Source: an uncultured Actinomycetes bacterium
Lineage (GTDB): Bacteria > Actinomycetota > Thermoleophilia > RBG-16-64-13
Assembly (NCBI GenBank): GCA_963706025.1
Contig: CAVPLM010000003.1
Span: 256,001-320,000, forward strand
Length of the DNA stretch: 64,000 bases
Direction of reading: 5' to 3'
The stretch's first letter is position 1. Each line of letters begins with the position of its first letter. Made by a program: the position numbers and the translations under genes. Below the pieces are notes generated by a model that made no database searches, was not told the DNA's origin, and worked only from the letters and a program-made list of their open reading frames with translations. This document shows positions 16,195 to 64,000 of the stretch, in pieces.

Positions 16195-16443
16195 GTGCGC
16201 GGAGGCCAACGCTCGGTGCGTGGGCGCACGTGTCGGCCGTCGACCATCCTCATGATCGTCGGCGCCTTGTTGTCCCTGGCTGTGCGCGGTGATATCAGGA
16301 AGAAGCGGCAATAGCCCTCGCTTGCGACGGGATGCGACCCTCCGTATGCTATGGTCGTCTGGGCGGACACCAGGCTCGACAGACACCAGGCTCGGCGGCC
16401 ACCCGGCCAATGCGGCATGAGCAAAAAACGGAGCGGGCAGTCC

Positions 16444-24018: not shown

Positions 24019-24021
24019 GCC

Positions 24022-25972
24022 ATGCAGTTCCCCAACCTCTTCAGCCCTTTGCGGATCGGTCGGGTGACCGTGCCCAACCGCATCTCCTTCTCCGCCCATC
24101 TGACGAACCTCGCGGATGACGCACTGCCCACCGACCGGCTCACACACTACCTGGCGGCCCGCGCCCGGGGCGGGACCGGCCTGATCATTACCGAAGAGCA
24201 GTCCGTCCACCCCACCGACCGGGCCTACGAGCGACTTATCGAGGCCTTCCGTCCGGAGGTCATCCCCGGCTACAGGCGGCTCACTCAGGCGGTCCACGCC
24301 TACGACACCCGCATCTTCGCCCAGCTCAACCACAACGGGCAGCAGTGCAGCGGCAGCCTTTCCCGGCTTCCCGTGTGGGCGCCCTCCCCCGTTCCGGACG
24401 TGCTCTACCGGGAGACGCCCAAGGCCATGGAGATCGAGGACATCCAGGAAATGATCGATCACTTCGCGCTTTCCGCGGTCCATGTCCGCGAAGGCGGGTT
24501 CGACGGGGTGGAGCTGCAGTTCGGTCACAGCTCGCTGGTGCGCCAGTTCATGTCGCCGCTCACGAACTATCCGGGGCGACGAGTACGGCGGCGACTTCGA
24601 GAACCGGATCCGGTTCGCCCTGCAGGTGATCGCCGCGGTCCGTGAGGCGGTGGGCGCCGACTTCACCCTGGGCGTACGCCTCTGCGCCGACGAGCTGATC
24701 CCCGGGGGACTCACCCTCGACGACGCCAAGCAGATCGCGCAGCGGCTCGAAGCGACCGGCCACCTGGACTACTTCAACCTCACTCTGGCCACCTTCTACA
24801 ACCTCTATCTGGTCGGGGGCCCCATGCATCTGCCTCTGGGCTACGCGGTCCCCTTGGCGGCCGGTATCAAGGAGGTGGCGACGCTCCCGGTGTTCGCCAC
24901 CGGGCGCATCAACGACCCGGCGATGGCCGAGCGGGTGCTGGCCGAAGGACAGGCCGACATGATCGGGGTGGTGCGGGGCCAGATCGCCGACCCCGACTTC
25001 GCCCGCAAGGCCCGCGAGGGCCGGACCGAGGAGATACGCTACTGCATAGCCTGCAACCAGAATTGCTACGGACGGGTGGGGCTCAACAAGACGATCGGGT
25101 GCGTCCAGAACCCCTTCGTAGGTCACGAAGACACCGAGGGAGAGTCGCATCTCCGGCCTGCGCTACGCAAGAAGCGGGTAATGGTCGTGGGCGGGGGCCC
25201 AGCGGGCATGTGGGCGGCCAAGATCGCCACCCTGCGGGGACACCAGGTGACCCTGTACGAGAAGGCCGAGGAGCTCGGCGGCCAGGTGCTCCTGGCCGCG
25301 AAGGGAGCAGGCAGGGACGAGTTCGGGGTGATCGTGCGTAACGAGCGCAACCAGTTGGCCCATCTGGGGGTGCCCGTGGAGCTTGGCGTGGAGGTCACGC
25401 CGGAGCTCGTTCTCGAACAGCAGCCGGACGCGGTGATCGTGGCCACCGGGTCGCGTCCCAAGGCCAGCCCGGTCGCCGGCGCCGACGGCCCCCATATCTT
25501 CAACGTGTGGCAGGTCCTGAGCGGGGAGGCAGAGCTGGGCGAGAAGGTGCTCTTGATCGACTACGACGGCCACCACCAGGCGACGGCCACGGCGGAGTTC
25601 CTCGCCGAGCTCGGCAAGACCGTGCACGTGGTGACCTCGAGCCTCTTCGTGGGAGCTGAGCTGGGTCCGTCGCAGGATCTCTATCTCACCCGGCAGCGAC
25701 TGCTCCAGAAAGGGGTCACCTTCACCCCCGACTTCGCGGTCATGGAGATCAAGGGCACGGAGGTCCACGGTTTCAACGTCTACTCCAATGTCTGGGACGT
25801 GTTCTCGGGTCACGACAGCATCGTCACCGCCATGGGCAACGACGCCTACGACGGTCTCTACTTCGCCCTCAAGGGGAAGGTACCCGAGCTCTACCGTATC
25901 GGCGACTGCGTGGCGCCGCGGAAGGTGGACATGGCCATCCACGAAGGCTACATGGCCGGCAAGCGCGTGTGA
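24022..25972 (+). CDS. FadH/old-yellow-enzyme family oxidoreductase (mycofactocin-system type); frameshift near 24571
   Basis: NRISFSAHLTN, GFDGVELQFGHSSLVRQF, CIACNQNC, GGGPAG and IGDCVAPR motifs. Confidence 0.88.
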
Positions 25973-43239: not shown

Positions 43240-44404
43240 CTAGGCGACCGGTTCGGTCTGGGTGTCGCCCGGCATACCCTCGGTCGCTGGCAGCGGCGCG
43301 ATCTGCTCACGCAGCACCGAGAAATACATGGCCAACGGGCGATAGGCCATGTGCGACCACTTGCTGAACGGGCACTTCCAGCCCAAGCATTGGGACCACC
43401 GCCATGAGATGCACGACATACGAGACGTTTGCGGCCACGTCGGCGCCCCACGGTGCAGCACGTGCTGTAGGATGCCCGTCGCCGCCACGATGATCAGGAG
43501 AACGAGGAACATCCAGTCGCTCTCGTGCGAGTGCCTGTAGTGCTCCTCCACCTTCTTGATCCGGCCGCGCAGCGCATAGATGGTCGCGCCCAGCAGCCCG
43601 ACGCTCGCCAGATAGCCAAACGCGTGCACACGCCAGTCGATCTCGGGACCGGACCACATGCGATCGAGGAAGAACATGATGAGCATGAGCATGGTCACGT
43701 AGCTGAGCATAAGCATCAGGTGCAGGATCCACGGCCGTTTCTGTTGCACTGCGCGTAGCGCTTCTGAGTCATGAAGTGGAGCGGGAAGAGATAGAGAGCC
43801 CTTGACGTACGCCAAGGGCGGTAGCCGCCCCGTGCGGGACCCGCCCACCGTGTCGCGCCCCAGCGTGAACCACCACATGCGGGCGCAGTTGGGAAGCAGA
43901 AAGGCAAGGAGAAAAGCCGCCAGGAGCCAGTCGAAGATGTGGATGGTGCTCGCCGGCAGGAAAGCGTCGGGCCCGTGTACTGGTGGATGTCGCCCTGGAG
44001 GAGGCCGAAAAGGTGAAACCAAGGCCGGTGAGGAGCGCCACCACCACCACGGCGATGATCTCGGTCTACGGGCGCCGGTAGAACATCCGGCCGATGCCGG
44101 TGAAGTCGTAGCGCGAGGTCAACCAGCGGCGCAGGCTCATCATGGTCTCGCCCGGTTGGGCCTCCCGCGGGCACTCCGTCGAGCACTCGCCGCAGTAGTA
44201 GCAGAGCCAGGGCTCGAGGCTGCTCTCGAGCTTCTTCTCCATGCCCATCTGGAGGGCGTGCATGCACTTGCGCGGGAAGTTGTACGACTGGTCGATGAGC
44301 GAGCAGGTCGCCGTGCAGTTACCGCAGTTGTAGCACTTCTGCACATCCTCGGCTCCGTAGAGAGCCAAGTCGTCGATGAAGCCGGGATTCACCCTGGTGG
44401 TCAT
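43240..44404 (-). CDS. QmoC-like protein (HdrC-type 2x4Fe-4S plus membrane cytochrome b-like domain); several frameshifts
   Basis: CYNCGNCTATC and WLCYYCGECSTECP; TM parts with WILHLMLM, DWMFL and PFSKWSHMAYRPLA. Confidence 0.75.
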
Positions 44405-44685
44405 GGTTCGTCTCTCTCGATCGCCTGGTATCGGAAGTAGCCCTCGTCGGTGACCTCTTTGACCTCGCGCCACGTAGCCGTATTTGCGCATGCCCATCAC
44501 CCAGAAGGTCACCTCGAAGGTGGGCCTACCTAGGCCTTCCGCGATCTCGGGGATGGTAAGGGGCTCGGTCGGCGAGCAGCCTCAGGATGCGGCCCCGCAT
44601 GAGGTGCTCGTCACGGATGACCTCGCGGACCTCGCGGTTCTGGGAGCGGCTCATGCCGGCGACGCCTGGCATCGGTAGCGCTCAT
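44401..44685 (-). CDS. Small winged-helix protein, frameshifted
   Basis: Reconstructed as REVIRDEHLMRGRILRLL..PLTIPEIAEGLGRPTFEVTFWVMGMRKYGYV..EVTDEGYFRY. Confidence 0.6.
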
Positions 44686-46543
44686 GCCGGTACCTCCGCC
44701 GGCTCCTCCGTCCAGCAGGCCGTCGATCATGGCCCGGATCTGCGCGTCGGTGTAGCCCTCCAGGTCGATGGCGTCCTTGGGGCAGACCGGCACGCAGCCC
44801 CCGCAGCCCTTGCAGGCGGTCTTGTCGATGAAGGCGACGGCCTTGCCGTTCTCGTCGATCTGCCGCGGCGCTTCGTAGGGGCAGGCCTCCAGACAGAGGC
44901 CGCACCAGGTGCAGTCGTCGGTGTCGACCATGGCGACCAGCGGGTCCAGTTCCGCATAACCGCGCTTGAGGATGGAGGCGCTCTGGGTCACCGCGGCTAG
45001 GCCCGAGGCCACGGCTTCGGCGGAGTTCCTCGGGCCTGGCAGGCGCCGCAGATGTACACGCCGTCGACCACGGTCTCGACCGGGCGCAGCTTCGGATGGA
45101 TCTCGTTGAAGAAACCGCCTCTACCCACCGGCAGCTTGAGGGTCTTGATCAGCTCCGTCGTTGGCCCGCGGCACCATGCCGGTGACCAGGACCACGAGGT
45201 CGGCCGGGATCTCCACCTCTTCGCCCTCGCTCGAGAAGGTCGCGGGTGGTCACGAGCAGCTTTCCGCTCTCCGGGTCGCGCGCGCACCGCCGGCGGCTCG
45301 TCGTCGGGCACCTTGACGATAGACAGAGCCCTTGTTCAGGGACTCGTCGTAGAGCAACTCGTACTTGCCGTAGGTCCGTACGTCGCGGTGCAGGTGGTAT
45401 TGGTGCACCTTTCCCGGTTTGGCCGCCACCTGAGTGAGGCGTGCACGGCCGCGGTGCAGCAGTAGCGGGAGCAGTACTCGTTGGGCGCTCTCCACGTCGG
45501 CATCCTGCCGGCTCCCGACGCAGTAGATGTAGGCCATGGTCCCGACCGGCTTCCCGCCGATACTGAAGGGACCCTCTCTCTACGTCGACGAGCCGCTTGA
45601 ACTCGGGGAGCGTGACCACGCCATCGAGGCCGTAGCCGAACTCATCCTCGGCTACCTGGTAGGCGTCGAAGCCCGTGGCCACGATGATCGAGCCCGACCT
45701 GCACCGTGATGGTCTCGGGTCGCCGGCGTTCTCCGCCGGCTTCTCGCGGCTCACCTGTATAGGCGACCTCGTAATTGCCGAAACTGCCCGGCCTTGCCGA
45801 CCACCTCGGCATTCGTGAACACGGTGATGTCGGGGTGCTCGCGGACCTTGTCCATCAACCGGCCGATCAGCTCTCGGCCGTTCTTGCCGTGCGGGTACAT
45901 CTCTCCGAAGCCGCCCGCCCAGCCGCCGAGCTGCTCTTCCTTCTCCACGAGAAAGACGGCCAGCCCGATCTCGGCCAAACCCAGGGCGGCCCTCAGACCG
46001 GCTATGCCGCCCCCGATCACCACCGCCTTCGGGACCGTCTCGACGACGATCGGCTCGAGAGGAACGGTGAGGCGGGTGCGGCCGATGCCGGCCTTCACCA
46101 GCTGGGAGGCCTTGCGGGTGGCGCCTTGGTAGTCGTCGGTATGCGTCCAGGAGCATTGCTCCCGGACGTTCACCTGGGTGTATTGGTAGGGGCTGAGCCC
46201 GGCCCGCTTCGCGACTTCCCGGAAGGTGAAGGTGTGCAGCTTTGGCGAGCACGAAGCCACCACGATGCCATCGAGGTTCTGCTCCTTGATGTCCTTGATG
46301 ATCTCCTGCTGGCTGGCGTCGGAGCAGGTGAACATGGCCGTCTTGGCCACGACCACGTCGGGATCGGACTGGACGGAGGCCACCACTTTGTCCACGTCCA
46401 CATAGTCGGAGATGTTGCCCCCGCAGTGGCAGACGTAGACCCCGATGCGCCGCTTGCCGCCGGTCGTCGCTTGGCCTGCTGCGTCGCCGGCCATCGCGGT
46501 GTCGCTCGCGCTCATCGCGCCGTTGGTGCTCGGCGTCGGTCAT
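44682..46543 (-). CDS. hdrA: HdrA/QmoB-like flavoprotein; multiple frameshifts
   Basis: IGVYVCHCGGNI, ASCSP, NVREQCSW, GGGIAG, YCVGSR and HPKLRPVET; C-terminal CTWCGLC/CKGCGGC ferredoxin. Confidence 0.85.
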
Positions 46544-49229
46544 GGCGCCACCCTCGCCTTCTCGAGGTGAGCCGCGGCTTGAGCCACTGCGGCGCCCGCG
46601 TGAAGGATGGAGTCGGGGATGTCCTTGACCCCGGAAGCGGAGCCCGCGACGTAGACGCCGGGGATGTTAGTCGCCCCGGGGTTCAGGTCCTCCTCCGGCT
46701 CTCCCACGTAGAAGTAGTCGTCCAACTCCAGCTCGCCATCGGGGAAGAGCCGACGCAAGCCGTCGCTGGGGCGGACGCCGACCGCAAGCACGACGAGGTC
46801 GTGCTCGGCCTCGACTGAGCGCCCCGTTTTCGATGTCCTCGTAGCGCAGGACCAGGTTCCCATCCTCCTTCTCCGTGATCTCGGCCACGCGACCCTTAAC
46901 GAAGTTGGCCCCCATGGCCTTGGCCTGCTCGTAGAACTCGTTGTAGCCCTTGCCGACCGCGCGGATATCCATGTAGTACACGGTGACGTCTGCCAGCGGT
47001 AGGGCCCCCATGATCAATTGGTTCTGCTTGATCGAGTACATGCAGCAGATGCGCGAGCAGAGCGGGTTGTCCACCGTCTCGTCGCGGGAGCCGGTGCAGA
47101 GGATGTAGGCTATGCTGTCGGGCACTTTGCCGTCCCCCGGTCGCAGGACGCCGTTGTAGGGGCGGGTGGGAGCCAGGAGTCGGTCCATCTGCATCCCGGT
47201 GATGACGTTCTTGTACTTGCCATAGCCGTATTGCGGCTTCAGGTCGGCCGGGAAGAGCGTGTAGCCGGTGGCCACGATGACCGTGTCCACCTCGGCCTCC
47301 GATCTCGCTTCCCTGCATGTCCAGATGGATACACTCGGGCGGGCAGATCTTGACGCACTGCTGGCATTCGGAGCACACCCCGCAGTCCAGGCAGCGGCTC
47401 GCGCTCTGGAGCGCCTCTTCTTCGGTCATGGTCTGCTCGTCCGGGTAGAACTCGCCCGGCGACCAGTTTCCCGGTCTCGCGTTGGAGCCGGCGGCTCGAT
47501 CCGGCTGTAGGTCGATTGCCTCGCCAGAACTGTCTCCTTGTCCACGGTCGGGAGCGTGCCGTCGAACAGGGCAGGGTCGAAGAGCCTGTCCTTGGAGCCA
47601 GCGATCGAGCATGAAAGCCGCCCGGCGGCCTTGCCCCGCGGCTGATGTGATCATCGAGGGCCCCAGAACGACGTCACCTGCCGCGAACACGTAAGGCACG
47701 CTGGTTTGCAGCGTCCCTTCGTCAGCTTGAATGGTGCCGCTGCTGTTCACGGGCAGCCCGAATGCGCCGGAATCCGGCCTCATGCCGGCGGCGACGATCA
47801 CCGCGTCACAGGTCAAGCTCCCCGCGGTGCCGTCAGCGTACTTCGGGCTGAACCGTCCTTTGTCGTCGTAGACCGATACGCAACGCATGAGATCGACGCT
47901 GCGCACTGAATCCTCGCCCCCGAAGGCGCGCACTCCGCACGAGTTCTTGAAGGTGACTCCTTCGGCTCGTGCCTCTTCGACCTCTTGCGGGTGAGCAGGC
48001 ATCTCCTGGAGCGATTCGAGACTGAGCTGCTGGACAGATCGAGCGCCATGTCGTAGCGCAGTACGGGCGACGTCGATGGCGACGTTGCCGCCGCCGATCA
48101 CCACGACCCGCTTGTCCTGCACGTCGAGTTCTTCGCCGAGTTTGGCGGCCTTCAGGAAATCGGCGGCGCGCATGACGCCGGGCAGATCCTCCCCGGGGAC
48201 CCGCAGCCTGGTGGCCTGATGGGTGCCTATGGCAAGGAGCACGGCATCGTAGCCCTCAGCCTTCAGGGCCTCGAGGTCGTCCACACGGGAATCGGTCAGG
48301 ATAGTCACGCCAAGGTCGGTGACGTTGGCCACGTCTTCGTCCACGACTTCGTTCGGTAGGCGATAGGGAGGCAGAGCCAAGCGCAGCATGCCGCCGGGCT
48401 GGGATGCCGCCTCGAGTATCGTGACCTCGTACCCCTTGCGCGCCAGATGCCAAGCCGCCGTCAGACCGGCCGGTCCGGATCCCACTATCGCCACCTTCTT
48501 GCCGTTGGGAGGAGCGACCTCCACCGGAGTTCTGTCTTTGGCGTAGTGGGTGTCGGCGATGAATCGCTTCAGCCTGCGGATGGAGAGCGAGCCTTCCAAG
48601 CTGCCGCGGGTGCACTCCTCTTCACACGGCGCGTAGCAGGCTCGACCCAGGCTGCCGACCAGCGGCGTGGCCTCACATACGAGTTCGAAAGCCTTCTCAT
48701 ATTGACCGCTGCGGATAAGCGCTATGTAGCCGTGAGGTTTGATCCCTGCCGGACAGGAGGCCACGCAGGGTGACGTCCCCGCTCGTTCGATCACGGCCTT
48801 CTTCGGCACCGCTTGTGGGAAGGCGATGTAGGCCGCTCGCCGAGAGACCATATCGGCGTTGAACTCGTCCGGCACCGCCACGTTGCAGACCATCTCGCAC
48901 ATGCGGCACCCCGTGCACGCGACAATGTCGACAAACCGGGGCTTCTGACGGATCTTCGCCCGGAAACCGCCGTTCTCCCGCCGGATACCGTCGACCTCCG
49001 CGTACGTGAGGACCGTTACATTCGGATGGTGGATCGTGGCCCCCATCTTGGGAGTGGAGATGCAACTGGCGCAGTCGAGCGTGGGAAAGACCTTGCTGAG
49101 CAAGATCATCCTCCCCCCGACGCTCGCTTCCTTCTCGACGACCAGCACCTGGTAGCCCATGTCACCCAACTTCAGGGCCGACTCCATGCCACCGATGCCG
49201 CTACCGACCACCAAAGCGTCGTACTTCAT
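46540..49229 (-). CDS. HdrL/QmoA-like flavoprotein with inserted GltD-like NAD(P)H oxidoreductase module; frameshifts
   Basis: GSGIGG, KVFPTLDCASC, CTGCRMC, SPCVASCP, GRAC..PCE..C, GSGPAG, GGGNVA, CLDCGVCSEC, CTGSRD..CSRICC. Confidence 0.85.
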
Positions 49230-49661
49230 GCCGCCTCCACTCCGGACGGCTTCCCTGAGGGGCCAAGTCCCGCGAGAGCAGCCGAGAACTCGCGCATGTA
49301 GTTGGTGAACGGCTCGGCGCAGACGGAGCAGATGGCCGCCATCTTCACACGCCTTGCGTCGTGACCCTGCTCCACGAGCAACGTCTGGGCGTCGGTCATG
49401 ATCTTGGCCGTCCGCTCGCTGCAGTCAGGGAGATAGGCGCACTCCTCGCCATCCGCGGCGATGAACACCCCGTCGAATCCCTGCTGGACGGCATAGAGTA
49501 TCCAGCCGGGCTTGATTCCACTCGTGCAGGGGACACTGATGACTACCACGGTAGGTGAGTAGTGCATGTGCGAGCTGCCGGCCAGGTCGATGCCCGGGTC
49601 GGAGATGTTGTTGGTCGAGAAGACCAGTATTTTCGGCGTGAAGCCCTCGCCTTCGGACCAC
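49226..49661 (-). CDS. mvhD: MvhD/FlpD-like iron-sulfur subunit (variant; start region probably frameshifted)
   Basis: PKILVFSTNNISDPGIDLAGSSHMHY..VPCTSGI..GFDGVFIAADGEECAY..AICSVCAEPF. Confidence 0.8.
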
Positions 49662-53862: not shown

Positions 53863-55108
53863 TCAGCCTAAGTTCTCCGCTCCCGACGCCGCGCGCGACT
53901 CCTCCAAGGCCACGCGTGCGGCGCAGCGCTGCTTGACCGGGTCGAGCCGCAGGGTGACGAAGAAGGTGATGATCGCGAACACGCAGGCGATGAGGAACGG
54001 GACCTGATAGCCCACGAAATTGAGGATGAAGCCTGCCGCTACCGGCACCACGATGGCGGTGGCGTGCAGGACGGTCACGCCCATGGCTAGGGTGGGGGCG
54101 ATGTCCTTGGGGACGGCGATCTTGCGCATGTAGGTCGCCGCGGCGATCGGTGAGACGGGGGTGATGAGGGCGTAGATAACGTAGAAGAAACAGGCGACCC
54201 ACACGTTCCCGGCCACGGCGTAGCCGGCCAGGGCCACCACGTAGGCGAGGTTGACGATGGTGAGGATGCGGCGCTCCCCATGCCGGTCGATCCTCCGGCC
54301 CACCCAAGAAGACACGGACCATGCTCGCGAACGTCACGACCATGAGCAGTATCGAGATCCCGGATACTCCGAGCCCGAAATGATTGACGAGCACCCACAA
54401 GCCGAAAGAGAAGAACACCTGCTGGCGGGCCCCATCGAGTAAGTTGAGCAGGTAGTAGAAGCGGTATTCCCGCCGGAACACTATCGGTTCCCTTTTGGGC
54501 GCCGCCGCCCTCAACTCCCCCTCGTGAAGGTGGGGGAAGCGGAAGATGGCGATCGCGCCTATCAAAGCGGCCACGCCCAGGATCACGAACGTGGGCTGGA
54601 ACGACAGCAGGTCGAACTGGAAGACGATGAAGATGAATGCAAAAGCGGCGAAGGTGCCGGCCTGGCCGAAGGCCGCCATGCGCCCAAGAACGGCGCCGCT
54701 CCTGTCCTCGGTCGTCAGGTCCATGCCGAGGGAGTACTGAGTCTGAAGGACGGTGTGGAAGCCGAAGCTTGTGATGAGAACCCAGGGGATGACCGTCCAA
54801 AAACCGGTCGACAGCGAGAACAAGGCGTAGCCGATACCAAGAGCCACAAGCGCCCCCGCCGTGACGTGCTGCAAGGACACCCGGTAGAGCATGGCAGTCA
54901 GGAAGATGAGGACGAAGCCGCCCACCTCGCGGATGGCCGTGATGTAGCCGAACTGGGGCCCTGAGAAGTGGAGCACTTCTTCGAAGTAGTTGGTGACGAT
55001 GCTGTTGTGCCCGTTCACGGCGAAGCCGAAGGCGGCGGACATCACCCCGAGCATGATGAAGCCCCGCCCCAAGGGGCTGCTCCACATCTCCCGGATTCGA
55101 CTTCTCAT
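53863..55108 (-). CDS. MFS transporter; frameshift near 54315
   Basis: About 12 TM segments across ORFs 53735..55144 and 53863..54315; GRRIDRHGERR loop motif. Confidence 0.85.
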
Positions 55109-57432: not shown

Positions 57433-57636
57433 TCAGATCTTCCCCTTCTCCACCAGCTTCGCGAAATGGGTGAACGAGCGATCGTACGTGCGTTCCGCCT
57501 CGGGCGGGAAGGCACAGGCGGGAAGCTCCCGGCTTCTGAGGTGGTAGGCGATGCAGTCGCAGCAGACCCCCTTGCGGGAACAGCCTTGCCACGTGCAGTT
57601 GCAGCAGCCCAGATTCGCTTCCTTCTTGCACTCCAT
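57433..57636 (-). CDS. Small Cys-rich protein (DUF6485-like)
   Basis: [36 protein letters not shown]. Confidence 0.75.
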
Positions 57637-57796
57637 CGTCGCTCCTTGTCGAGGTATCGCGGGCCGCGCCAGGTCGGGGTGCCCGGTATCGCCTTCCTCC
57701 ATTATGCAGTGTCCAGTGGCCCCGCTGTGATTCCAGGGTATCTAGCTGTGAACGTCCCTCGATCGATGTGGACCGCGCAGTGGGTCACTATAGGAT

Positions 57797-57824
57797 TTGA
57801 CATGTAGATAACAAATAGTAAACT
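57797..57824 (+). promoter_or_regulatory. Promoter of the MerR-TetR regulator with a putative operator
   Basis: TTGACA-16 nt-TAAACT; the spacer contains ATAACAAATAGTAAA. Confidence 0.55.
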
Positions 57825-57841: not shown

Positions 57842-58778
57842 ATGCGATCTTTGACCATCACCGAACTCGAAGAAGCGACCGGCGTCCCCCGTAGCACCAT
57901 CTACTTCTACGTGCGGGAGGGTCTGCTGCCCACGGCGCAGAAAGCGGCGGCGAGCCGGGCCATCTACGCGGAGTCACACGTCGATCTGCTCAAGGAGATC
58001 GCCCGGCTGAAAGCTGAAGGGTGGCCCCTGCGGATCATCAAGGAGCGATTGGCGCCTCAAGTCGCATCGGTCCGCGCTCTCGACGTCGACTTGGTGGCCG
58101 AACAGGCCGAACAGACTCGGCAGTCGATCCTGGTGGCCGCGGCCCGCCTTTTTGCGCGCAAAGGGTACAAACGCACCCGCGTCGCCGATATCATCAAGGA
58201 GGTCGGCGTCACGCCGCCGGTCTTCTACAGCCACTTCCCCTCCAAGAGGGAACTCTTCGTGGAATCCTTCGGGGTCTTCGTGGGTTGGATGCGTGGGTTC
58301 GTCGAACCTCAACTTGACGCCGAACCCGACGCCGCCGCCCGGGACTTGCGGCGAGTACACGGTTACTTCGGCGTGCAGGCCTTGAGTCCCGATCTGATGT
58401 CCCTGGTACGTTCCGAGGCCCTCCACGAAGACGGCGATATTCGCAAGGTGGTGGAGAGGTCTTACAAGGACATGACCGAGGGCACCCTCGGCGATTTGGT
58501 CCGGCTTCGGGAAGAGCGGGGAACGATACTGCCTGCGGCGGACGAACTCGTCGCTTTCGGGTTGCTGGGTGGAGTGGAGAACATCGTGATGCGGGCCTCG
58601 TGGGACGAGCGCTACTCTAACGCGTGACGTCTTGTGGACGACTCTCTGCATGTTCCTCGCCGTCGAAGCGCTCTACACCGGTCGTTTGGATCTCGGGCAC
58701 GAGCTTGCAGGATACGCTGAGCTGGTCGACCGGTTGGCGACGGCTGCCCCGCCGGTGCCGCCCGCGGCACTCGCCTAG
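57842..58778 (+). CDS. MerR-HTH plus TetR fusion regulator; frameshift near 58620
   Basis: TITELEEATGVPRSTIYFYVREGLLP (MerR) and ILVAAARLFARKGY..FYSHFPSKRELF (TetR); alternative frame continues to TAG 58778. Confidence 0.85.
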
Positions 58779-58785
58779 GCTCCGA

Positions 58786-58824
58786 TTGACAATCGCCTGA
58801 TCTGACTTTAGTATTTGTAATACT
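58786..58824 (+). promoter_or_regulatory. Sigma-70 promoter with overlapping palindromic operator
   Basis: TTGACA-17 nt-TAGTAT; AGTATT-tgt-AATACT at 58810..58824. Confidence 0.75.
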
Positions 58825-58877
58825 GGGAACAAGTCCTATAGCCACAGTCCCGTAGTCACCCGCCTAGGAGGTGCTCA

Positions 58878-59669
58878 GTGCCCATCAAACTCATGGCGGC
58901 TTCCCGTCGTCGCCCCGGCCTGACTCGAGCGGAGTACTTCCGCTACCTCGAGCATTATCACGGCACCGTCGCCCGACTGGAGCGCTTCAAGATCGACCGG
59001 TACATCCAGAACCACGTGATCGACGGCGCCTTCGGAGTACTCTCCGATACCAGCCACAAGAACAAGGCCGTGGACCGCGAAGGTGTGGTCGAGCTCTACT
59101 TCAGCGAGTTCCGGGACATGCTCGACACCCTTGAGCCCCAGGGGGTGGAGCAATCGCGGGCCAACCAGGACGGCAAGTTCTTCGCCGACGAGCCGACGAA
59201 CATCATCGTCATGGCGGAAGAAGTGGAGTTGCCGGTGTCGAATCCCCGGCCCAAGTTCAACCCGGGATTGGGAGAATCCGGTTGCGGCGCGGTCAAGGTC
59301 CTGCACTACATCATGCGCAAGCCTGAGGTATTCCCCAACGACTACCACAAGCTCTGGCGCCAGGCGCACGACGAAGCCATGGCCAAGTCCCCGTACGCCC
59401 AGGAGATGTTCCGCAAGATCGTTCTGAGCAAGCGCGCCCGGGTGAACGACAACGATGCCGCCGCCCGGGCCCACTTCCGCATGGTCGATCCGCCCGTCTA
59501 TGACCTGGTGGTGTCGGTCACCCTGGACAGCATGGAGCAGGTGGGGGCCTTCAGGCAGTACCTCGAGGCCATGCAGGAAAGCCCGCTCGACTTCGCCGAT
59601 TGGTCGGAGTCGTTCTTCCTCTACGTGCGGCCGGTGCGCATCATCGACGACGCGCCGCCGAAGGACTGA
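58878..59669 (+). CDS. Tandem EthD-like (dimeric alpha-beta barrel) domain protein
   Basis: RRRPGLTRAEYFRYLEHYHG..YIQNH..EGVVELYF, and a second repeat MRKPEV..YHKLWRQAH. Confidence 0.7.
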   Translation: MPIKLMAASRRRPGLTRAEYFRYLEHYHGTVARLERFKIDRYIQNHVIDGAFGVLSDTSHKNKAVDREGVVELYFSEFRDMLDTLEPQGVEQSRANQDGKFFADEPTNIIVMAEEVELPVSNPRPKFNPGLGESGCGAVKVLHYIMRKPEVFPNDYHKLWRQAHDEAMAKSPYAQEMFRKIVLSKRARVNDNDAAARAHFRMVDPPVYDLVVSVTLDSMEQVGAFRQYLEAMQESPLDFADWSESFFLYVRPVRIIDDAPPKD

Positions 59670-59704
59670 CCAAGCGTTCCTCTCGATCTAGTGAAGGGAT
59701 CGTC

Positions 59705-60616
59705 ATGACTCAAGACAAGAACACGCCCGAGTGGAAGGCGCAGAAGACCTACACTCAGAACCGGGCCGACAGCGAGCTCAAGGCCACTCTGCCCCCGCTC
59801 ACTCCGGAGGAAGAGGCCCGGCCTTTCGCCAAGTACTACTACGAACCCCTCAAGCAGCCGGATCCCGCCCACTACGCCGCGATGGAAGTGCCCATCGACC
59901 CGGCCAGGGCCTTCGGTCCTGAAGAGCTCGATCGGATGCTCGACCCTAAGCGTCTGGAGACCCAAGAGGTCGAGGTGGGCTGGTGCAACCTCCCCAATGG
60001 CGCCGGCTTCATCGCCAACACCATCGTCTACCCCGACGTGACCGCGGAGATGATCGACTGGTGGTTCGTCTGGCACACGCTGGAAGACCTGCGCTACCGC
60101 ATCTGGTATCCCCCGCAGCACGCCGGCATCATGCTCAGCCCCATCGACCGGGCCCGCATCCTCGATCCGGACATCCCCATGCGCGAGAAGAACTGGGGCG
60201 TTACCCACTACGTGACCGAGAACTGCGACTGCGGTATGGAGAACGTCGACATCAGCTTCCGTTCGCCGCAGGACATGGGCTTCGACATGGACCGGTTCGA
60301 CAAGGTAGCGGCCACGTTCGCAGGCGGCGGTGGCTGGGCGGTCACCGTCTGCAAGTGCGACACGTCGATCACCGCGCCGGCCATCATGTGCCACATGTTC
60401 TACGAGGTGCCCGGCGGTCTGCGGCACCGCACCCGCTTCTGGATGGGCTACCGATTCACCGAGGACGGCAAGCCGGAGCTATGCCTGCCTCCTGGAGTAG
60501 CGGTCCCCGCGGATGCGGTACAGGGCTTGGCCCGGCACAACGTCAAGGAGTTCACGCGTTTCGGCGATTTCCTGCCCCGGATCTACAAGGAGTTGGGTCC
60601 CAGCCTGTACTGCTAG
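59705..60616 (+). CDS. PhlG/phloretin hydrolase-like C-C hydrolase 1
   Basis: EVGWCNLPNG, VTAEMIDWWFVWH, RYRIWYPPQH, HYVTE, RTRFWMG and HNVKEF motifs. Confidence 0.85.
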   Translation: MTQDKNTPEWKAQKTYTQNRADSELKATLPPLTPEEEARPFAKYYYEPLKQPDPAHYAAMEVPIDPARAFGPEELDRMLDPKRLETQEVEVGWCNLPNGAGFIANTIVYPDVTAEMIDWWFVWHTLEDLRYRIWYPPQHAGIMLSPIDRARILDPDIPMREKNWGVTHYVTENCDCGMENVDISFRSPQDMGFDMDRFDKVAATFAGGGGWAVTVCKCDTSITAPAIMCHMFYEVPGGLRHRTRFWMGYRFTEDGKPELCLPPGVAVPADAVQGLARHNVKEFTRFGDFLPRIYKELGPSLYC

Positions 60617-60733
60617 GGAGTCCGCACGGCGGCCGCCCTGCCGATGCGGCCGCTCCGTCGGGTGCAGCTGCTCTGTCGGGCATGACCGCTCCGTCCTGCG
60701 CGCAGGACCTGTCGACGAAGGAGGAGAACGAAA

Positions 60734-61517
60734 GTGATCAAGTCGATCGTGCTGATGAGTCTCCCGATAGACGACATCGCGGAGATGGAACGGTGGTACT
60801 ACCGAGAGCACTCCTCGGAGATCTCGCGTCGCTATGGGCCTTGGCTGGAGCGGCACGAGAGCTTCGCGGCCCTCGAGCGCCCCGGCCGATGCCCGCGAAT
60901 ACGGCTTCTACGACTGGCGTTTGACCGAGTGCTTCTGGCGCGAGGTACCGCTGCCCGGCCCCCGGGGGGCCTATTGTTTCACCCCGGCGCCGGTGTGGAA
61001 CCCCATCGTAGCCTGCGCGGTGCCGGCGCAACCCAGCGAGGATTTCCTGGGCTGGGACGGCTTCGCAACCGACCGGGCCTGCATTCGCTGGTATCAGATC
61101 TTCCGCTACCCGCTGGGCGTGCGCTTGAACGACGGGGAAGACTGGTACCTGAACGTGCATGCGCCCGAGGTGATGAAACAGCCGGGCCTGCGCCGCTTCT
61201 TCAGCTACCGAGCGGTCAAGCCCCCTGTCCCCCTGCCGGGCATGTGGCATCCGGACGCGACGCCCCCCGAAGACATGCAGTTGGTGCAGTGGGACCGGGT
61301 CACCGAGCTGTGGTACGAGAGTTTCGCAGCGTGGCGGAACGCGGTCATCAGCAACCCGCCGCAGTACACCCTGCCGGATTGGGCTACCGATCCGTTCTAT
61401 CCCGAGACCACCGACAAGTTCCCGTTCTTCAAGCCGGGGGTCGACTTCGTGAGCACCTTCTTGCTCGAGCGGCCCACCGACGAATTCAAACGCGACACCC
61501 GCTACTACCTGCCGTAG
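60734..61517 (+). CDS. Bacterial chalcone-isomerase-like protein; frameshift near 60875
   Basis: ERWYYREH, YGFYDWRLTECFW, YPLGV..GEDW, VTELWYE and PDWA..FPFFKP resemble my recollection of Eubacterium ramulus CHI. Confidence 0.65.
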
Positions 61518-61584
61518 GTCGGAGTGCAGGTCGAGGCAGACGCAGCGGGGCGGAGCGACGTGAGCCGAATGGAGGCGATCCCTA

Positions 61585-62421
61585 ATGGCTGAGGCGAAGA
61601 TACGAGAACTGACCGCCGAGGAGAAGGCGAAACCCTACTCCAAGTACTACTACCGGCCGGTGGACGATCCCGACCCGGTGCTGCTCGAGCTGGTGCGGCC
61701 GGACCGACCCATGGATTCGGCCAAGGCCCTCTATCCCGAAGACATCAACCGCCTGCTCGACCCCGGCTACATGGAGGTCGAGACCGGCTGGTGCAGCCTG
61801 CCCAATGGAGCCGGCTACATCTGCGTCAACAACAAGATGCCCGGCGTCACCGTTGACATGCTCGATTGGTGGTTCGCCTGGCACTCGCTGGCCGGCATGC
61901 ACTATGGCATCTGGTATCCGCCGGGCCACTTCGGCATCTCCATCAGCGAGAAGGACCGCAAGAAGGTGCTCGACCCGACCGTTCCCATCAAAGAGAAGAT
62001 CTACGGCCGCACCGATCACGTCGTCGAAGACGTGGGCACGGGAGCCGAGGACATCTTCATCTTCTTCTGTCACCCCTCGGAGTTGGGATTTGACATGGAC
62101 CGGTTCCGTCCACCCGCCGTGGCCGCGGTCTACGGTGGCTATGGCTTGGATATGCCGCAAAACGCGCAGCCCTGGACCATCCGAGCCCCGGCCATCATGT
62201 GCCACTTCATCCGCGAGATCCCCGGCGGTGTCGAGTTCCGGACCCGGTTCTGGATGGGATACACGCTGATTGATGGCAAGCCGCTGTACATGCTGCCTTA
62301 CGGGGTGAAGGTGCCGGTCGAGGCCATCCAGGGGCTCGCGGAGCACAATGTGCGGGAGTATACGAACCTGCGCAATGTGCTTCCCGAGATCTACACGGAA
62401 CTCGGGGGGCGTATCCCCTGA
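61585..62421 (+). CDS. PhlG/phloretin hydrolase-like C-C hydrolase 2
   Basis: ETGWCSLPNG, MLDWWFAWH, IWYPPGH, HVVED, RTRFWMG and HNVREY motifs. Confidence 0.85.
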   Translation: MAEAKIRELTAEEKAKPYSKYYYRPVDDPDPVLLELVRPDRPMDSAKALYPEDINRLLDPGYMEVETGWCSLPNGAGYICVNNKMPGVTVDMLDWWFAWHSLAGMHYGIWYPPGHFGISISEKDRKKVLDPTVPIKEKIYGRTDHVVEDVGTGAEDIFIFFCHPSELGFDMDRFRPPAVAAVYGGYGLDMPQNAQPWTIRAPAIMCHFIREIPGGVEFRTRFWMGYTLIDGKPLYMLPYGVKVPVEAIQGLAEHNVREYTNLRNVLPEIYTELGGRIP

Positions 62422-62438
62422 GCCCGTCGGGGCGGGGC

Positions 62439-63338
62439 CTACTGCAGTTCGGCCTCAAAATGGCCGGCGACGCTCGCCCGGATGTGGATCATGAGCGCCC
62501 GCGCCGCGGTCGAGACAGGGTGTTCGCGGAGATGGATGAGGTCGAGCGACCGGACGGGGCGCTCCAGCAAGGAGATGGCGACGAGCCCCTCCAGGGTCTC
62601 GGGAACAATGAGCATCTTGGGGACAAGGGCGACCCCCAGCCCTTGCCTGGCGAGAGCCTTGGTGAGTTCTACGTAGTTAGCTCGATACGGGACTCGAGGC
62701 TCAAAGCCAGCCCGCCGGCAGACGTCCATCAGCAGATTGGACATGTTCATCGAATGGCCGGGAAGCAGAATGGGTTCGTCGGCCAGACAACTCAGCGAAA
62801 CCGGCAAGCCGCTTGCCAAGCGGTGGTCACTAGGGACCACCAGAAGTATCTCCTCGGTCAGGATGCGAGTGGTCGCGGCTCGGGGGGATCCCCATGCAGT
62901 CACGATGGCGCAGTCAAGCTCCCCGTTCATGACTGCTTCCTCCAGGAGTACGTCCTCTCGCTCGATGAGATCGAGATGGACCCGGGGGTATGTCTTGATG
63001 AAGGAAGCAAGGATCGGGGCCAAGAGATGAGCGAAGACCGTCCCGGTGGACCCCAGGCTGACCTTGCTGGAGAGCGTTCCCACGTGTTCCCGGATCATTC
63101 GGGAGGCGTCGTCGGCGCGCGCGATTATGTTCCTGGCCAGGGGAAGCAAGAGCCTGCCGTCGGCCGTGCACTCGACGCGGCGACCGTACCGCTCGAAGAG
63201 CTGAGCCCCCAACTCCGTCTCCAGCCGGGCGATCTGGCGGCTGATGGCCGGCTGGGAGAGATGTACGAGCGAGGCCGCTCGGGTGAAGCTGCGGGCCTCG
63301 GCCACGGCGACGAACGATCTGAGCTGATCGAGTTCCAT
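62439..63338 (-). CDS. LysR family regulator
   Basis: SFTRAA..LSQPAISRQIARLETELGAQLFER HTH. Confidence 0.95.
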   Translation of the reverse strand: MELDQLRSFVAVAEARSFTRAASLVHLSQPAISRQIARLETELGAQLFERYGRRVECTADGRLLLPLARNIIARADDASRMIREHVGTLSSKVSLGSTGTVFAHLLAPILASFIKTYPRVHLDLIEREDVLLEEAVMNGELDCAIVTAWGSPRAATTRILTEEILLVVPSDHRLASGLPVSLSCLADEPILLPGHSMNMSNLLMDVCRRAGFEPRVPYRANYVELTKALARQGLGVALVPKMLIVPETLEGLVAISLLERPVRSLDLIHLREHPVSTAARALMIHIRASVAGHFEAELQ

Positions 63339-63545
63339 CTATGCACGATTGTAATGGCAACGGCTACCTATGCAAAGGGGACGGGGAGACCCCCCTTCTG
63401 CCGGTGCGGGACTATATTGGGACGGTGACTGTGCCACCTCTGACCCACGGTGCGGCGCAGAACCTTGAATTGGCGGCAGACGGCCTGATGGGAATGGTAC
63501 CCTCCGCCAATAGTGTGGAATCAACGTTAGAAAGAGGTGAGTCCT

Positions 63546-64000
63546 TTGCTCGGTTACATGGGAAAGCTACTGCGGGCAGACCTGACCGCCCGGACGCTCA
63601 AGGACGAACCGCTCGATCCGGAAACGGCCGGGGCCTTCATCGGCGGCTCCGGATACGCCGCCCGGATCATTAACGACGAGGTACCCGGAGACACCGATCC
63701 GTTGAGCCCAGCCAACAAGCTGGTCTTCATGACCGGTCCGGCTACCGCGACCAGCCTGCCCACCACTGCTCGCTACGAGGTCTGCACCAAGTCGCCGCTC
63801 ACCAACATGTGGCTGGACGCCAGCTCCTCCGGCTGGTGGGCACGGGATTTGAAGCTCGCGGGGTATGACGGGCTGATCGTGGAAGGCGCGGCCGATGCCC
63901 CTGTCTACCTATGGATCAAGGACGGCAAGGCAGAGATCCGGGACGCATCGGCCTTCTGGGGAATGGACTCCGACCAGACTCAAGAAGCGATCCGCGCCGA
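63546..64000 (+). CDS. Aldehyde:ferredoxin oxidoreductase (W/Mo AOR family), N-terminal part; runs off the window edge
   Basis: MLGYMGKLLRADLT..FIGGSG..DPLSPANKLVFMTGP..KSPLT..LKLAGYDGLIVEG; AGAGG RBS. Not in the ORF track. Confidence 0.9.
   Translation, partial: MLGYMGKLLRADLTARTLKDEPLDPETAGAFIGGSGYAARIINDEVPGDTDPLSPANKLVFMTGPATATSLPTTARYEVCTKSPLTNMWLDASSSGWWARDLKLAGYDGLIVEGAADAPVYLWIKDGKAEIRDASAFWGMDSDQTQEAIRA

Follow-up and report, generated by a model that had tools for sequence, protein, structure and literature searches.

At its downstream end, the window (the whole 64-kb stretch of DNA that we analysed) carries what we take, with moderate confidence, to be an operon for the inducible breakdown of flavonoid-type acylphloroglucinols, built from two pairs of genes that each encode a barrel protein and a hydrolase. 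This reading is supported by the homologies of the encoded proteins, by catalytic and ligand positions that are kept, by the pairing of the genes and by a predicted complex. We infer the substrates, the products and anaerobiosis, as well as the order of the steps and any reduction of a chalcone to a dihydrochalcone before hydrolysis. The operon would encode a variant that departs from the known form of the CHI/Phy (chalcone isomerase/phloretin hydrolase) flavonoid pathway, with predicted substrates. The initial annotation of this stretch, which had proposed such an operon, is partly supported in its interpretation; all parts of it that can be checked in silico have held.

Organisation of the locus

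Positions 57842-64000 hold genes for a MerR-TetR regulator, a tandem-EthD protein, two hydrolases of the PhlG/Phy type, a split CHI-like protein and a LysR regulator, followed by the start of a gene for an aldehyde:ferredoxin oxidoreductase (AOR). Every gene named in the initial annotation was found in its place, and the observation is confirmed. The features are as follows:

57433..57702, minus strand: small Cys-rich DUF6485 protein (PF20095, 4.5e-11), divergent from the regulator; context only
57797..57824, plus strand: promoter-like site 5' of the regulator gene, TTGACA-16-TAAACT, 10/12 matches; consensus match only
57842..58627, plus strand: MerR-TetR fusion regulator, 261 aa; MerR_1 3.5e-13 (residues 5-70), TetR_N 1.9e-20 (residues 96-141)
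58786..58814, plus strand: promoter-like site 5' of the four enzyme genes, TTGACA-17-TAGTAT, 10/12 matches
58832-58841 and 58846-58855, plus strand: conserved box AGTCCTATAG and a similar copy, AGTCCCGTAG; candidate operator
58878..59669, plus strand: tandem-EthD protein EthD2, 263 aa; EthD 2.5e-11; GTG start behind AGGAGG
59705..60616, plus strand: hydrolase 1, 303 aa, DAPG-hydrolase family (PF18089, 6.4e-68)
60734..61517, plus strand: lidless CHI homologue, 260 aa when read through; two frames (read-through P0121)
61585..62421, plus strand: hydrolase 2, 278 aa, DAPG-hydrolase family (PF18089, 1.9e-73)
62439..63338, minus strand: LysR-type regulator; HTH_1 7.2e-24, LysR_substrate 9.5e-41
63537..64000, plus strand: N-terminal part of the AOR; AFOR_N 2.3e-50; continues past the window end

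The four enzyme genes are separated by gaps of 35, 117 and 67 nt. The LysR gene is convergent with the gene of hydrolase 2 and divergent from that of the AOR, which is complete in relatives (617 aa in L007).

A lidless homologue of chalcone isomerase

The CHI-like gene is a true homologue of the Eubacterium ramulus chalcone isomerase. Its family profile matches the E. ramulus enzyme (3zph) with an E value of 2e-32 over profile positions 3-237 of 253, and 106 of the 120 homologues listed carry the Chalcone_N domain (PF18232). In a Foldseek search with the predicted model (pLDDT 93.1), the 11 best listed matches were CHI chains (TM 0.74-0.80) and the next match had a TM of 0.49. The structural match to bacterial CHI, on which the annotation had staked its claim in advance, was thus found in both profile and fold.

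Residue H26, the equivalent of the catalytic base His33 of E. ramulus CHI (named as such in PMC9694015, excerpt), and E29, at the position of Asp36, are invariant in 71 aligned sequences. At the positions of Thr71-Glu72 the window protein has Thr-Glu, and E65 is nearly invariant. The lid (residues 106-130) is deleted together with neighbouring residues, the position of His73 is a Cys in the window protein, and the substrate contacts Asp79, Glu91 and Gln101 fall in a deleted or poorly aligned stretch, that is, they are not demonstrably kept. A CHI variant without the lid stays active, with a five-fold reduction (PMC9694015, excerpt).

Proteins of the lidless subfamily are about 250-260 aa long, and in at least 5 of 80 loci a canonical, lid-bearing CHI lies within 10 kb of the lidless one. 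An assignment as orthologue of the characterised CHI was rejected, since the lidless proteins form a separate subfamily that neighbours canonical CHI. For the same reason their reaction may differ from that of canonical CHI, a point that speaks against the flavonoid reading.

With respect to six of six relatives, the CHI-like gene has a 1-nt insertion near 60874. As this extra base breaks the frame, the gene could be a true pseudogene in a decaying operon, and the cluster no longer functional. We regard this as highly improbable: both halves of the gene are still open reading frames and are conserved (over 94% of its length, the C-terminal piece is 85% identical to the best of its homologues listed), and other genes of the window are split too, namely an MFS gene (53878-55108), an OYE-type reductase gene (about 24019-25972) and probably a radical-SAM/SPASM gene. 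Because several window genes and related, long-read-style MAG loci are split alike, the pattern agrees with assembly indel errors, and the frameshift is probably a sequencing error. P0013 and P0200 are frame-error chimeras.

Two hydrolases related to phloretin hydrolase and PhlG

Both hydrolases match the structures of Phy and PhlG, as had been proposed; in a sequence search, phloretin hydrolase 5xe5 (7.8e-34 for hydrolase 1, 1.1e-35 for hydrolase 2) and PhlG 3hwp (1.5e-26 and 1.8e-29, respectively) were their best matches among solved structures. H139, E172, H278 and E282 of hydrolase 1, and H115, E148, H254 and E258 of hydrolase 2, align with H137, E168, H278 and E282 of 3hwp_A. All four positions named earlier as candidates for zinc ligands (His, Glu and His-x3-Glu) are therefore kept in both proteins. 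We take the zinc ligands of PhlG to be His129, Glu160, His270 and Glu274, matching these four positions of 3hwp_A, which presumably carries an 8-residue tag (a chain of 302 residues versus 294 aa in the native protein).

The two hydrolases are 49% identical to each other, and hydrolase 1 has about 23 additional N-terminal residues. Judged by sequence, hydrolase 2 is closest to Phy-type proteins; among the matches listed, it is 52-59% identical to named clostridial members of the DAPG-hydrolase family, with 54% for the protein of C. scatologenes, which degrades phloroglucinol.

Maybe the substrates are not flavonoids at all: the operon could act on other acylphloroglucinols of microbial (DAPG, monoacetylphloroglucinol) or plant origin, with the barrel proteins serving as tautomerases or as specificity or chaperone-like subunits. 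The hydrolase family takes its name from DAPG hydrolase and matches PhlG, the substrate contacts of CHI are in doubt as described above, and EthD2 is predicted to be bound to a hydrolase rather than to act alone. We still find this improbable. Phloretin hydrolase outscores PhlG for both proteins (120.6 vs 96.7 bits for hydrolase 1, 126.5 vs 106.0 bits for hydrolase 2), and both fall far under the cut-off of the NCBIfam PhlG equivalog model (91.8 and 106.6 bits vs 600). In addition, the catalytic His and the polarising acid position of CHI are invariant, and elsewhere the lidless CHI occurs with canonical CHI and phloroglucinol-pathway genes.

EthD2 and its predicted complex with hydrolase 1

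The Pfam EthD domain covers only the first half of EthD2, while the AF2 model (pLDDT 79.5) has two ferredoxin-like halves. Foldseek returned generic tandem-barrel matches, with CHI at TM 0.48-0.56. A comparison of the EthD2 and CHI families with hhalign gave no sequence relation (probability 1.2%), and no solved structure matched the EthD2 profile in sequence with an E value of 0.1 or less. The 37 homologues selected for alignment A2 share 64-93% identity with the window protein, and Thermoleophilia, Holophaga and Terriglobales are among the source names of the EthD2 homologues listed.

The predicted complex of EthD2 and hydrolase 1 scored 0.86, and the best control 0.17. Of 157 solved complexes, 116 reach the mark for a complex, as do 2 of 215 mismatched pairs; these rates are only rough here because our own alignments were used. 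At least 90% of the contacts agree between runs, and the pLDDT of the partner is at least 79. Since EthD2 has no such relative among the solved structures, a solved complex is an unlikely source of the score. On this model and the gene pairing described below, EthD2 would be bound to hydrolase 1 as its partner. Of the extra EthD-fold enzyme that had been postulated, the fold stands, but a free-standing enzyme is less likely than such a partner.

Conservation of the hydrolase pairs

Of the 80 related loci that we fetched, 20 have the four enzyme genes next to one another; the arrangement is therefore not a chance juxtaposition. Twelve of these loci have the order EthD2-Hyd1-CHI-Hyd2 (same-order loci) and eight the order CHI-Hyd2-EthD2-Hyd1 (permuted loci), one of the latter with a divergent EthD/hydrolase pair.

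A quick tree divides the hydrolases into three orthogroups according to their upstream partner, which is EthD2, the lidless CHI or an FrdA-like flavoprotein. All 22 CHI-adjacent hydrolases fall in one clade (support 93), as do 21 of 22 EthD2-adjacent (support 99) and 8 of 9 flavoprotein-adjacent ones (support 100) in theirs. Hydrolase 1 of the window belongs to the EthD2-adjacent and hydrolase 2 to the CHI-adjacent orthogroup. The lidless CHI gene is directly followed by a hydrolase gene in the window and in 22 loci with the cassette or part of it; the EthD2 gene immediately precedes a hydrolase gene of one orthogroup in the window and in all 22 loci in which a hydrolase with EthD2 upstream was scored. 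The flavoprotein-hydrolase pair is known from relatives only, without a copy in the window.

Promoters and regulators

From the sequence, a single promoter for all four enzyme genes is plausible. In nine aligned upstream regions, its -35 element is readable in six, and a TAG-containing -10-like element as well as the first box, AGTCCTATAG, are found in eight each. A terminator scan returned three sites, each within a gene (shuffled expectation 3.1).

The MerR-TetR regulator would probably act on the promoter at 58786-58814. Its gene precedes the cassette in 11 of 12 same-order loci, and the DUF6485 gene keeps its position in equally many. In four of the eight permuted loci the MerR-TetR gene lies immediately upstream of the CHI gene and divergent from it, and in the other four further upstream (42-56% protein identity). 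In L027, L034, L046 and L052, too, it is found no more than 10 kb from a lidless CHI gene. LysR is present in 9 of 12 same-order and 0 of 8 permuted loci, and the AOR in 8 of 12 same-order loci; being conserved in the window's own clade alone, both are only putatively tied to the pathway.

The expected reductase and the fate of phloroglucinol

In the known flavonoid pathway, a reductase is required before Phy (PMC10470551 and PMC11868195, excerpts). As had been remarked before, it is missing from the block: we found none there, nor any homologue of the FrdA-like flavoprotein within the 64-kb window. Near the cassette in ten loci of relatives (L010, L014, L015, L017-L021, L045 and L063), this flavoprotein is encoded directly upstream of a further hydrolase copy, and we regard it as a candidate reductase of a non-Fcr type. 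An Fcr-class architecture (Oxidored_FMN plus Pyr_redox_2) is present in the window in the frameshifted OYE-type gene.

The operon could then be the gut pathway in incomplete form, following the canonical three steps with the reductase elsewhere: the CHI homologue opens the flavanone, a distant Fcr- or FrdA-type enzyme reduces the product to the dihydrochalcone, and plain phloretin-type hydrolases act last. The need for a reductase, the ten flavoprotein loci and the Fcr-class gene all favour this route, and we consider it possible, although unlikely. The OYE-type gene is 34 kb distant and from a very common family, only 1 of 12 same-order loci (L063) has the FrdA-like gene within 10 kb, and each hydrolase retains a non-reductase upstream partner across the rearrangement.

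Queries with SDR, VOC, 3HCDH (TfD-like) and BKACE (TAL-like) proteins gave no window homologue at E 1e-3 or better, and Pfam scans of the 56 window ORFs found neither adh_short (SDR) nor a cyclase-family domain. Thus no gene for the further metabolism of phloroglucinol lies close by. In related loci, the lidless CHI is within 10 kb of a TAL-like BKACE in 8 of 80 and of a TfD-like 3HCDH in 8 of 80; BKACE-type TAL and 3HCDH-type TfD belong to the phloroglucinol pathway (PMC10470551, excerpt).

Proposed pathway

In the inducible two-pair operon that we favour, each pair would consist of a ferredoxin-like-barrel protein and a zinc-dependent retro-Friedel-Crafts C-C hydrolase. In the first pair, the lidless CHI homologue, with His26 as general base, would open or rearrange a flavanone- or flavanonol-like O-heterocycle to a chalcone-type acylphloroglucinol, and the Phy-like hydrolase 2 would split the acyl carbon from the phloroglucinol ring, giving phloroglucinol and an aryl-C3 acid. 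In the second pair, the tandem-EthD protein would bind hydrolase 1 at its extra N-terminal segment and at loops that are near two metal ligands in the sequence; it may tune the substrate pocket, or perform a second isomerisation for another subclass of substrates. If a reduction precedes hydrolysis, the reductase would be encoded elsewhere.

Comparison with known systems

With E. ramulus CHI (PDB 3ZPH, 4C9S, 4D06 and 8B7U), the window homologue has in common the two-domain ferredoxin-like fold and the catalytic positions, but it is only ~20% identical, lacks the lid and His73, and belongs to a separate subfamily whose gene is followed directly by that of a hydrolase. The E. ramulus CHI gene presumably adjoins its reductase gene. 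In the gut bacterial pathway, CHI acts before an enoate reductase (PMC10470551, excerpt).

Phy (E. ramulus; M. abscessus 5XE5) and PhlG (3HWP) share with the window hydrolases the Pfam family over the full domain, the four ligand positions and a similar length. Phy and PhlG act as homo-oligomers, whereas hydrolase 1 is extended at its N-terminus and is predicted to pair with a different protein; furthermore, the window has two paralogues, and some relatives three, each with a different upstream partner. EthD2 resembles the EthD/dimeric alpha-beta-barrel superfamily (PF07110) in the Pfam match of its first half and in its two ferredoxin-like halves; it differs in having no characterised close relative and in being tied upstream to one hydrolase orthogroup. 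We found no pairing of EthD with phloretin hydrolase in the literature searched.

Parallels from environmental or gut anaerobes are the CHI/FCR/PHY sets of Holophaga and Sporomusales MAGs in anoxic wetland soil (PMC8084988, excerpt) and the FLR-Fcr-Phy operon of C. butyricum (PMC11868195, excerpt). CTSoil-series MAGs from anoxic soil (CTSoil_80 and 81 are named) are reported with CHI, FCR and PHY (PMC8084988, excerpt), and two CTSoil-series loci (L068 and L070) are among the relatives of our CHI homologue. In contrast to these sets, the cassette lacks a gene of the Fcr or FLR type and includes an additional EthD partner and two hydrolase copies, and its host is an uncultured soil lineage of Actinomycetota. 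The route proposed in the excerpts, from a flavonoid via an acylphloroglucinol to phloroglucinol, is the one that we propose here.

Gene content and conservation of the operon

We are inclined, with some reservation, to read the block at 57842-64000 as a putative catabolic operon for flavonoid-type acylphloroglucinols, made up of two pairs of a barrel protein and a hydrolase. The gene set that the initial annotation had placed here was recovered by ORF listing and Pfam scans.

Genes of the block, with their Pfam matches
57842-58627, + strand: MerR-TetR fusion regulator, 261 aa (MerR_1 3.5e-13 in the N-terminal part, then TetR_N 1.9e-20)
58878-59669, + strand: EthD2, a tandem-EthD protein, 263 aa (EthD 2.5e-11)
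59705-60616, + strand: hydrolase 1, 303 aa (DAPG_hydrolase 6.4e-68)
60734-61517, + strand: gene similar to chalcone isomerase (CHI), split over two frames (homology by family profile and fold)
61585-62421, + strand: hydrolase 2, 278 aa (DAPG_hydrolase 1.9e-73)
62439-63338, - strand: LysR regulator (HTH_1 7.2e-24, LysR_substrate 9.5e-41)
63537-64000, + strand: aldehyde:ferredoxin oxidoreductase (AOR), N-terminal start only (AFOR_N 2.3e-50)

The gaps within the run of four enzyme genes are 35, 117 and 67 nt long. A promoter scan found a sigma-70-like site, TTGACA-17-TAGTAT, at 58786-58814 ahead of EthD2. When nine upstream regions were aligned, the -35 element was readable in six and a TAG-containing -10-like element in eight, while the core of the ribosome-binding site and the GTG start were invariant. 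A scan for terminators gave three terminator-like sites (3.1 expected in shuffled sequence), each of them intragenic. Because of the promoter-like site, the upstream conservation and the intragenic position of all terminator-like sites, it is plausible, as far as the sequence can tell, that a single regulated promoter serves all four enzyme genes. The box AGTCCTATAG is found in eight of the nine upstream regions and may act as operator of the MerR-TetR regulator. It lies 3' of the -10 element, and a similar second copy follows 14 nt further (window 58832-58855). A search for inverted repeats 5' of the regulator and of EthD2 returned a short palindrome overlapping the ribosome-binding site as its sole find.

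Next, we asked how far this arrangement is shared. A scan of species-representative genomes yielded 177 relatives, from which 80 loci were kept; the closest relatives are all uncultured Actinomycetota MAGs. A tblastn search of the 80 loci with the window proteins found the order EthD2, hydrolase 1, CHI homologue, hydrolase 2 in 12 loci (L001-L009, L011, L012, L063) and the permuted order CHI homologue, hydrolase 2, EthD2, hydrolase 1 in eight (L013, L015-L021; the EthD/hydrolase pair of L021 is divergent). In the remaining 60 the CHI homologue stands beside other neighbours. The MerR-TetR gene lies 5' of the four-gene cassette in 11 of the 12 loci with the same order; in the eight permuted loci it is on the opposite strand 5' of the CHI gene, immediately so in four and further away in four. 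LysR and AOR accompany 9 and 8 of the 12 same-order loci, respectively, and neither is seen outside the clade of the window, so that shared synteny is all that supports a link to the pathway.

A lidless chalcone isomerase homologue

A single-sequence search of solved structures with a piece of the CHI-like protein placed CHI (E 0.015-0.13) below an unrelated xylanase (0.0026), so that a family profile was needed. The 227-aa C-terminal piece finds 128 proteins at E <= 0.001; among the 120 homologues listed, 106 carry PF18232, the chalcone isomerase N-terminal domain, and five of six rescanned homologues pass its Pfam cut-off. A profile of 71 sequences matches the CHI of Eubacterium ramulus (3zph, 4d06) at E 2e-32 over profile positions 3-237 of 253. 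For a full-length product we read through the frame break with a four-letter step (CGAT read as R, used once in the gene), comparing 21 candidate words; the resulting protein, P0121, has 260 aa, of which three residues at the break are arbitrary. The AlphaFold model of the CHI homologue (pLDDT 93.1, pTM 0.90) has CHI chains as all 11 of its best Foldseek matches listed, with E 7e-19 to 4e-18 and TM 0.74-0.80, followed by 5f9p at TM 0.49. Profile and fold thus bear out the likeness to bacterial CHI that had been proposed.

All 71 sequences share His26 and Glu29, which correspond in the alignment to His33 and Asp36 of E. ramulus CHI, so that a Glu stands in place of Asp36. According to passages of PMC9694015, His33 is the general base and is polarised by Asp36 through a water. 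The two proteins differ in further respects. The lid, residues 106-130 of E. ramulus CHI, is absent from the homologue, and the profile alignment skips CHI residues ~91-127; members of the family are mostly 250-260 aa long, compared with 282 for the E. ramulus enzyme; and the window protein has a Cys at the position of His73, a residue that contacts the substrate. The other substrate contacts, Asp79, Glu91 and Gln101, fall in a poorly aligned or deleted stretch and have no placeable counterpart. Since a lid-less CHI variant stays active, with five-fold reduced activity (PMC9694015, in part of its text), the missing lid does not exclude isomerase activity.

Some relatives carry both forms. In locus L022 there is a 274-aa protein whose match to E. 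ramulus CHI (2.3e-61) runs from end to end and takes in the lid region; in the stretch 996-3098 of this locus the lidless paralogue follows this canonical CHI by ~500 bp on the 3' side. In five of the 80 loci (L022, L033, L049, L060, L076) a canonical CHI at least 58% identical to that of L022 is found no more than 10 kb from the lidless gene, and weaker copies occur in L036 and L066. The window protein therefore belongs to the CHI superfamily and is not an orthologue of the characterised enzyme; the operon defines a lidless CHI subfamily.

The CHI gene has one extra base near 60874 compared with six relatives, all of which are in frame there. Decay of the operon would be one way to account for such a break, and we consider it hardly probable at all. 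Most likely the frameshift is an assembly error, since frame breaks of this kind also divide at least two more genes of the window, and both MAG records of relatives and database proteins show similar frame errors. The other split genes in the window suggest an indel-prone assembly: an MFS transporter (53878-55108, - strand) changes frame near 54318, an OYE-type enoate reductase (~24019-25972, + strand) does so within 24455-24645, where two frames overlap, and a radical-SAM/SPASM gene (22953-24018, + strand) is probably split too. Database proteins P0013, a lidless CHI with an out-of-frame tail, and P0200, the C-terminus of a hydrolase read into EthD2, could be mistaken for fusions. As a natural fusion, P0200 (EthD plus DAPG_hydrolase, 406 aa) was ruled out; a frame error joins the C-terminal part of the hydrolase to the next gene.

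Two hydrolases and their partners

Both hydrolases cover the DAPG_hydrolase profile (PF18089) almost completely, hydrolase 1 at positions 5-223 and hydrolase 2 at 5-222 of 223. Near full length, they match the phloretin hydrolase of M. abscessus (5xe5; 7.8e-34 for hydrolase 1, 1.1e-35 for hydrolase 2) and PhlG of P. fluorescens (3hwp; 1.5e-26 and 1.8e-29). Zinc-ligand candidates of the pattern His, Glu and His-x3-Glu had been noticed in both, and the four positions agree with a residue-level alignment in which H137, E168, H278 and E282 of 3hwp_A face H115, E148, H254 and E258 of hydrolase 2; the counterparts in hydrolase 1 are H139, E172, H278 and E282. The 3hwp_A chain has 302 residues and PhlG, we assume, 294, implying an 8-residue tag; corrected for it, the aligned positions are presumably the PhlG zinc ligands His129, Glu160, His270 and Glu274.

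The two hydrolases are 49% identical to each other. They reach only 91.8 and 106.6 bits against the PhlG equivalog NF047887, compared with its cut-off of 600 bits, and neither is therefore PhlG proper (2,4-diacetylphloroglucinol hydrolase). Compared with the named clostridial members of the DAPG-hydrolase family among the matches listed, hydrolase 2 shows 52-59% identity, with 54% for that of Clostridium scatologenes. Passages of PMC11868195 give 53-57% identity between the characterised Phy of E. ramulus and the proteins proposed as Phy in clostridia. The kinship of the window hydrolases to phloretin hydrolase (EC 3.7.1.4) is one of overall similarity. It is distinctly unlikely, in our judgement, that the substrates are non-flavonoid acylphloroglucinols; any such reading has to be set beside the near full-length matches to both PhlG and phloretin hydrolase and the bit scores against the PhlG equivalog.

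To see how the hydrolases relate to their neighbours, we built a tree of 55 sequences with a quick method, including a third paralogue that occurs in relatives only, beside a flavoprotein similar to FrdA. Its clades follow the upstream neighbour: all 22 CHI-adjacent hydrolases group together (support 93), as do 21 of the 22 EthD2-adjacent (99) and eight of the nine flavoprotein-adjacent ones (100), and the two exceptions are long branches. Kinship inflates these counts, and the independent information is that each pair has outlasted at least one rearrangement, plus a Desulfobacteraceae MAG (L030) which also has the pair of EthD2 and hydrolase 1.

An alignment of 37 selected EthD2 homologues, 64-93% identical to the window protein, contains many invariant charged residues; Thermoleophilia, Holophaga and Terriglobales are among the source names of the homologues listed. 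At E 0.1 or better, the EthD2 profile has zero sequence matches among solved structures in the PDB. Modelled (pLDDT 79.5), EthD2 folds as a tandem ferredoxin-like barrel, for which Foldseek gives generic matches, namely 3f44, CHI (TM 0.48-0.56), chlorite dismutases and coproheme decarboxylases; the ESM Atlas matches are clusters named 'EthD domain-containing protein' only. We also considered EthD2 as a distant CHI paralogue, which we reject at the level of sequence (hhalign probability 1.2% against the CHI family).

Since the pairing is so constant, EthD2 and hydrolase 1 were chosen for complex prediction. The predicted complex scores 0.86, and the best of three controls 0.17; 116 out of 157 solved complexes, but just 2 out of 215 mismatched pairs, attain the mark for this score, counts that apply only roughly here because our own alignments were the input. 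At least 90% of contacts are common to the runs, and partner pLDDT is at least 79. On the side of hydrolase 1, the predicted interface includes residues 15-18, within an N-terminal extension of ~23 residues that hydrolase 2 lacks, as well as 145-148, 167 and 169, near the ligands H139 and E172 in sequence; on the side of EthD2 it includes 191-192 of an invariant D191-N192-D193 run. To our knowledge, members of the two families have not been solved together in a complex. The model supports, as a prediction, a binding of EthD2 to hydrolase 1, and the operon as a whole would predict that hydrolase 1 needs its EthD-fold partner.

The reductase step and the downstream pathway

As the initial annotation had said, there is no reductase among the genes of the block. 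Its suggestion that an Fcr or enoate reductase might follow beyond 64000 was not borne out in two relatives used as a proxy, L009 and L007, where ~8 kb past the AOR gene hold no OYE-type enzyme. An Fcr-class architecture (Oxidored_FMN plus Pyr_redox_2) is present in the window in the frameshifted gene at ~24019-25972, 34 kb away. A canonical route whose reductase is encoded at a distance would fit such a gene, and we regard this route as rather unlikely.

The third hydrolase of the relatives is directly preceded by the gene of a ~533-aa flavoprotein (FAD_binding_2 plus Succ_DH_flav_C). Among solved structures this flavoprotein is closest to flavoprotein subunits of fumarate reductase (1.5e-26). 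We see it as a candidate enzyme for the absent reduction, and no homologue of it occurs in the window. The flavoprotein-hydrolase pair is found at ~7470-9990 in most of L014, L015, L017-L021 and L045. The third hydrolase is directly 5' of the CHI gene in L014, L017, L019-L021 and L045, whereas in L015 and L018 the two are separated by a divergent regulator gene. Similar pairs occur in L010 (4272-6802, directly 5' of the lidless CHI) and L063 (4816-7004, 5' of the regulator, frameshifted), and related flavoproteins near the lidless CHI in L022, L026, L027, L034, L049 and L052. Flavoprotein and hydrolase form one ORF in two of nine loci (L019, and L015, which is cut by the contig end) and separate ORFs in seven; the single ORF could be a genuine fusion or could stem from a frame error.

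For the later steps, the queried SDR, VOC, 3HCDH and BKACE proteins have no homologues in the window, and Pfam scans of its ORFs gave neither adh_short nor a cyclase-family domain. Within 10 kb of lidless CHI genes of other lineages we see BKACE (8/80), 3HCDH (8/80), SDR (23/80) and VOC/glyoxalase genes (21/80). Three of these families also have members in the anaerobic phloroglucinol pathway as described in passages of PMC10470551: TAL is a BKACE protein, TfD a 3HCDH protein and phloroglucinol reductase an SDR. A VOC/glyoxalase gene is often found alongside a canonical plus a lidless CHI (L022, L033, L049, L060, L076).

Several loci have further neighbours. In Lachnospiraceae bacterium ZAX-1 (L072, 7902-13072) the lidless CHI lies between phosphate acyltransferase/acyl-kinase genes and VOC/3HCDH/BKACE genes. 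A cyclase-family gene is not among the six neighbours scanned there (7319-13072), out of 13 ORFs within ~6 kb around the CHI gene, and the dihydrophloroglucinol step may therefore be solved differently. In another locus, L016, genes for a B12-binding corrinoid protein, a URO-D-type methyltransferase, DUF1638 and CobW flank the cassette (3057-8842, 13877-16658); in this one locus the flanks resemble a system for the O-demethylation of aromatics, as would suit methoxylated flavonoids. The window itself encodes the selenocysteine elongation factor SelB and a cluster of MvhD/FlpD-like, ferredoxin and NAD(P)H-flavoprotein genes (19128-21197, 44066-49567), and these, together with AOR and the radical-SAM genes, fit an anaerobic or facultative lifestyle.

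Implications and comparison with known pathways

The characterised enzymes of anaerobic flavonoid breakdown come from a few Bacillota, and the operon shows that uncultured Actinomycetota (related records carry the labels Thermoleophilia or Gaiellales) have Phy-like hydrolases together with a CHI homologue. Such breakdown matters for the persistence of polyphenol carbon in anoxic soils, the subject of the 'enzyme latch' debate, and for the metabolites that gut microbes make. CHI/FCR/PHY sets in anoxic-soil MAGs have already been published, according to part of PMC8084988. In the literature we searched, we found no paper joining EthD with phloretin hydrolase and none joining chalcone isomerase, phloretin hydrolase and Thermoleophilia. 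If the pairing holds, such modules would be overlooked or wrongly assigned by annotation pipelines in which CHI and Phy are scored one by one. A cofactor-free pair of isomerase and hydrolase could also serve in biocatalytic C-C cleavage.

The gut-type pathway consists of CHI, Fcr, Phy, phloroglucinol reductase, cyclohydrolase, TfD and TAL; here, in contrast, the reductase and the phloroglucinol genes do not adjoin the operon. We put forward, tentatively and as an unlikely proposal, that the PhlG-type hydrolases of these bacteria may be heteromeric two-enzyme machines. The barrel partner, either the lidless CHI or the EthD protein, would open the flavonoid heterocycle and pass the unstable chalcone to the bound hydrolase, and flavanones would be converted to phloroglucinol and hydroxycinnamate in a redox-neutral manner. 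If true, this reductase-free route would be a second solution for anaerobic cleavage of the flavonoid C-ring, beside CHI/Fcr/Phy.
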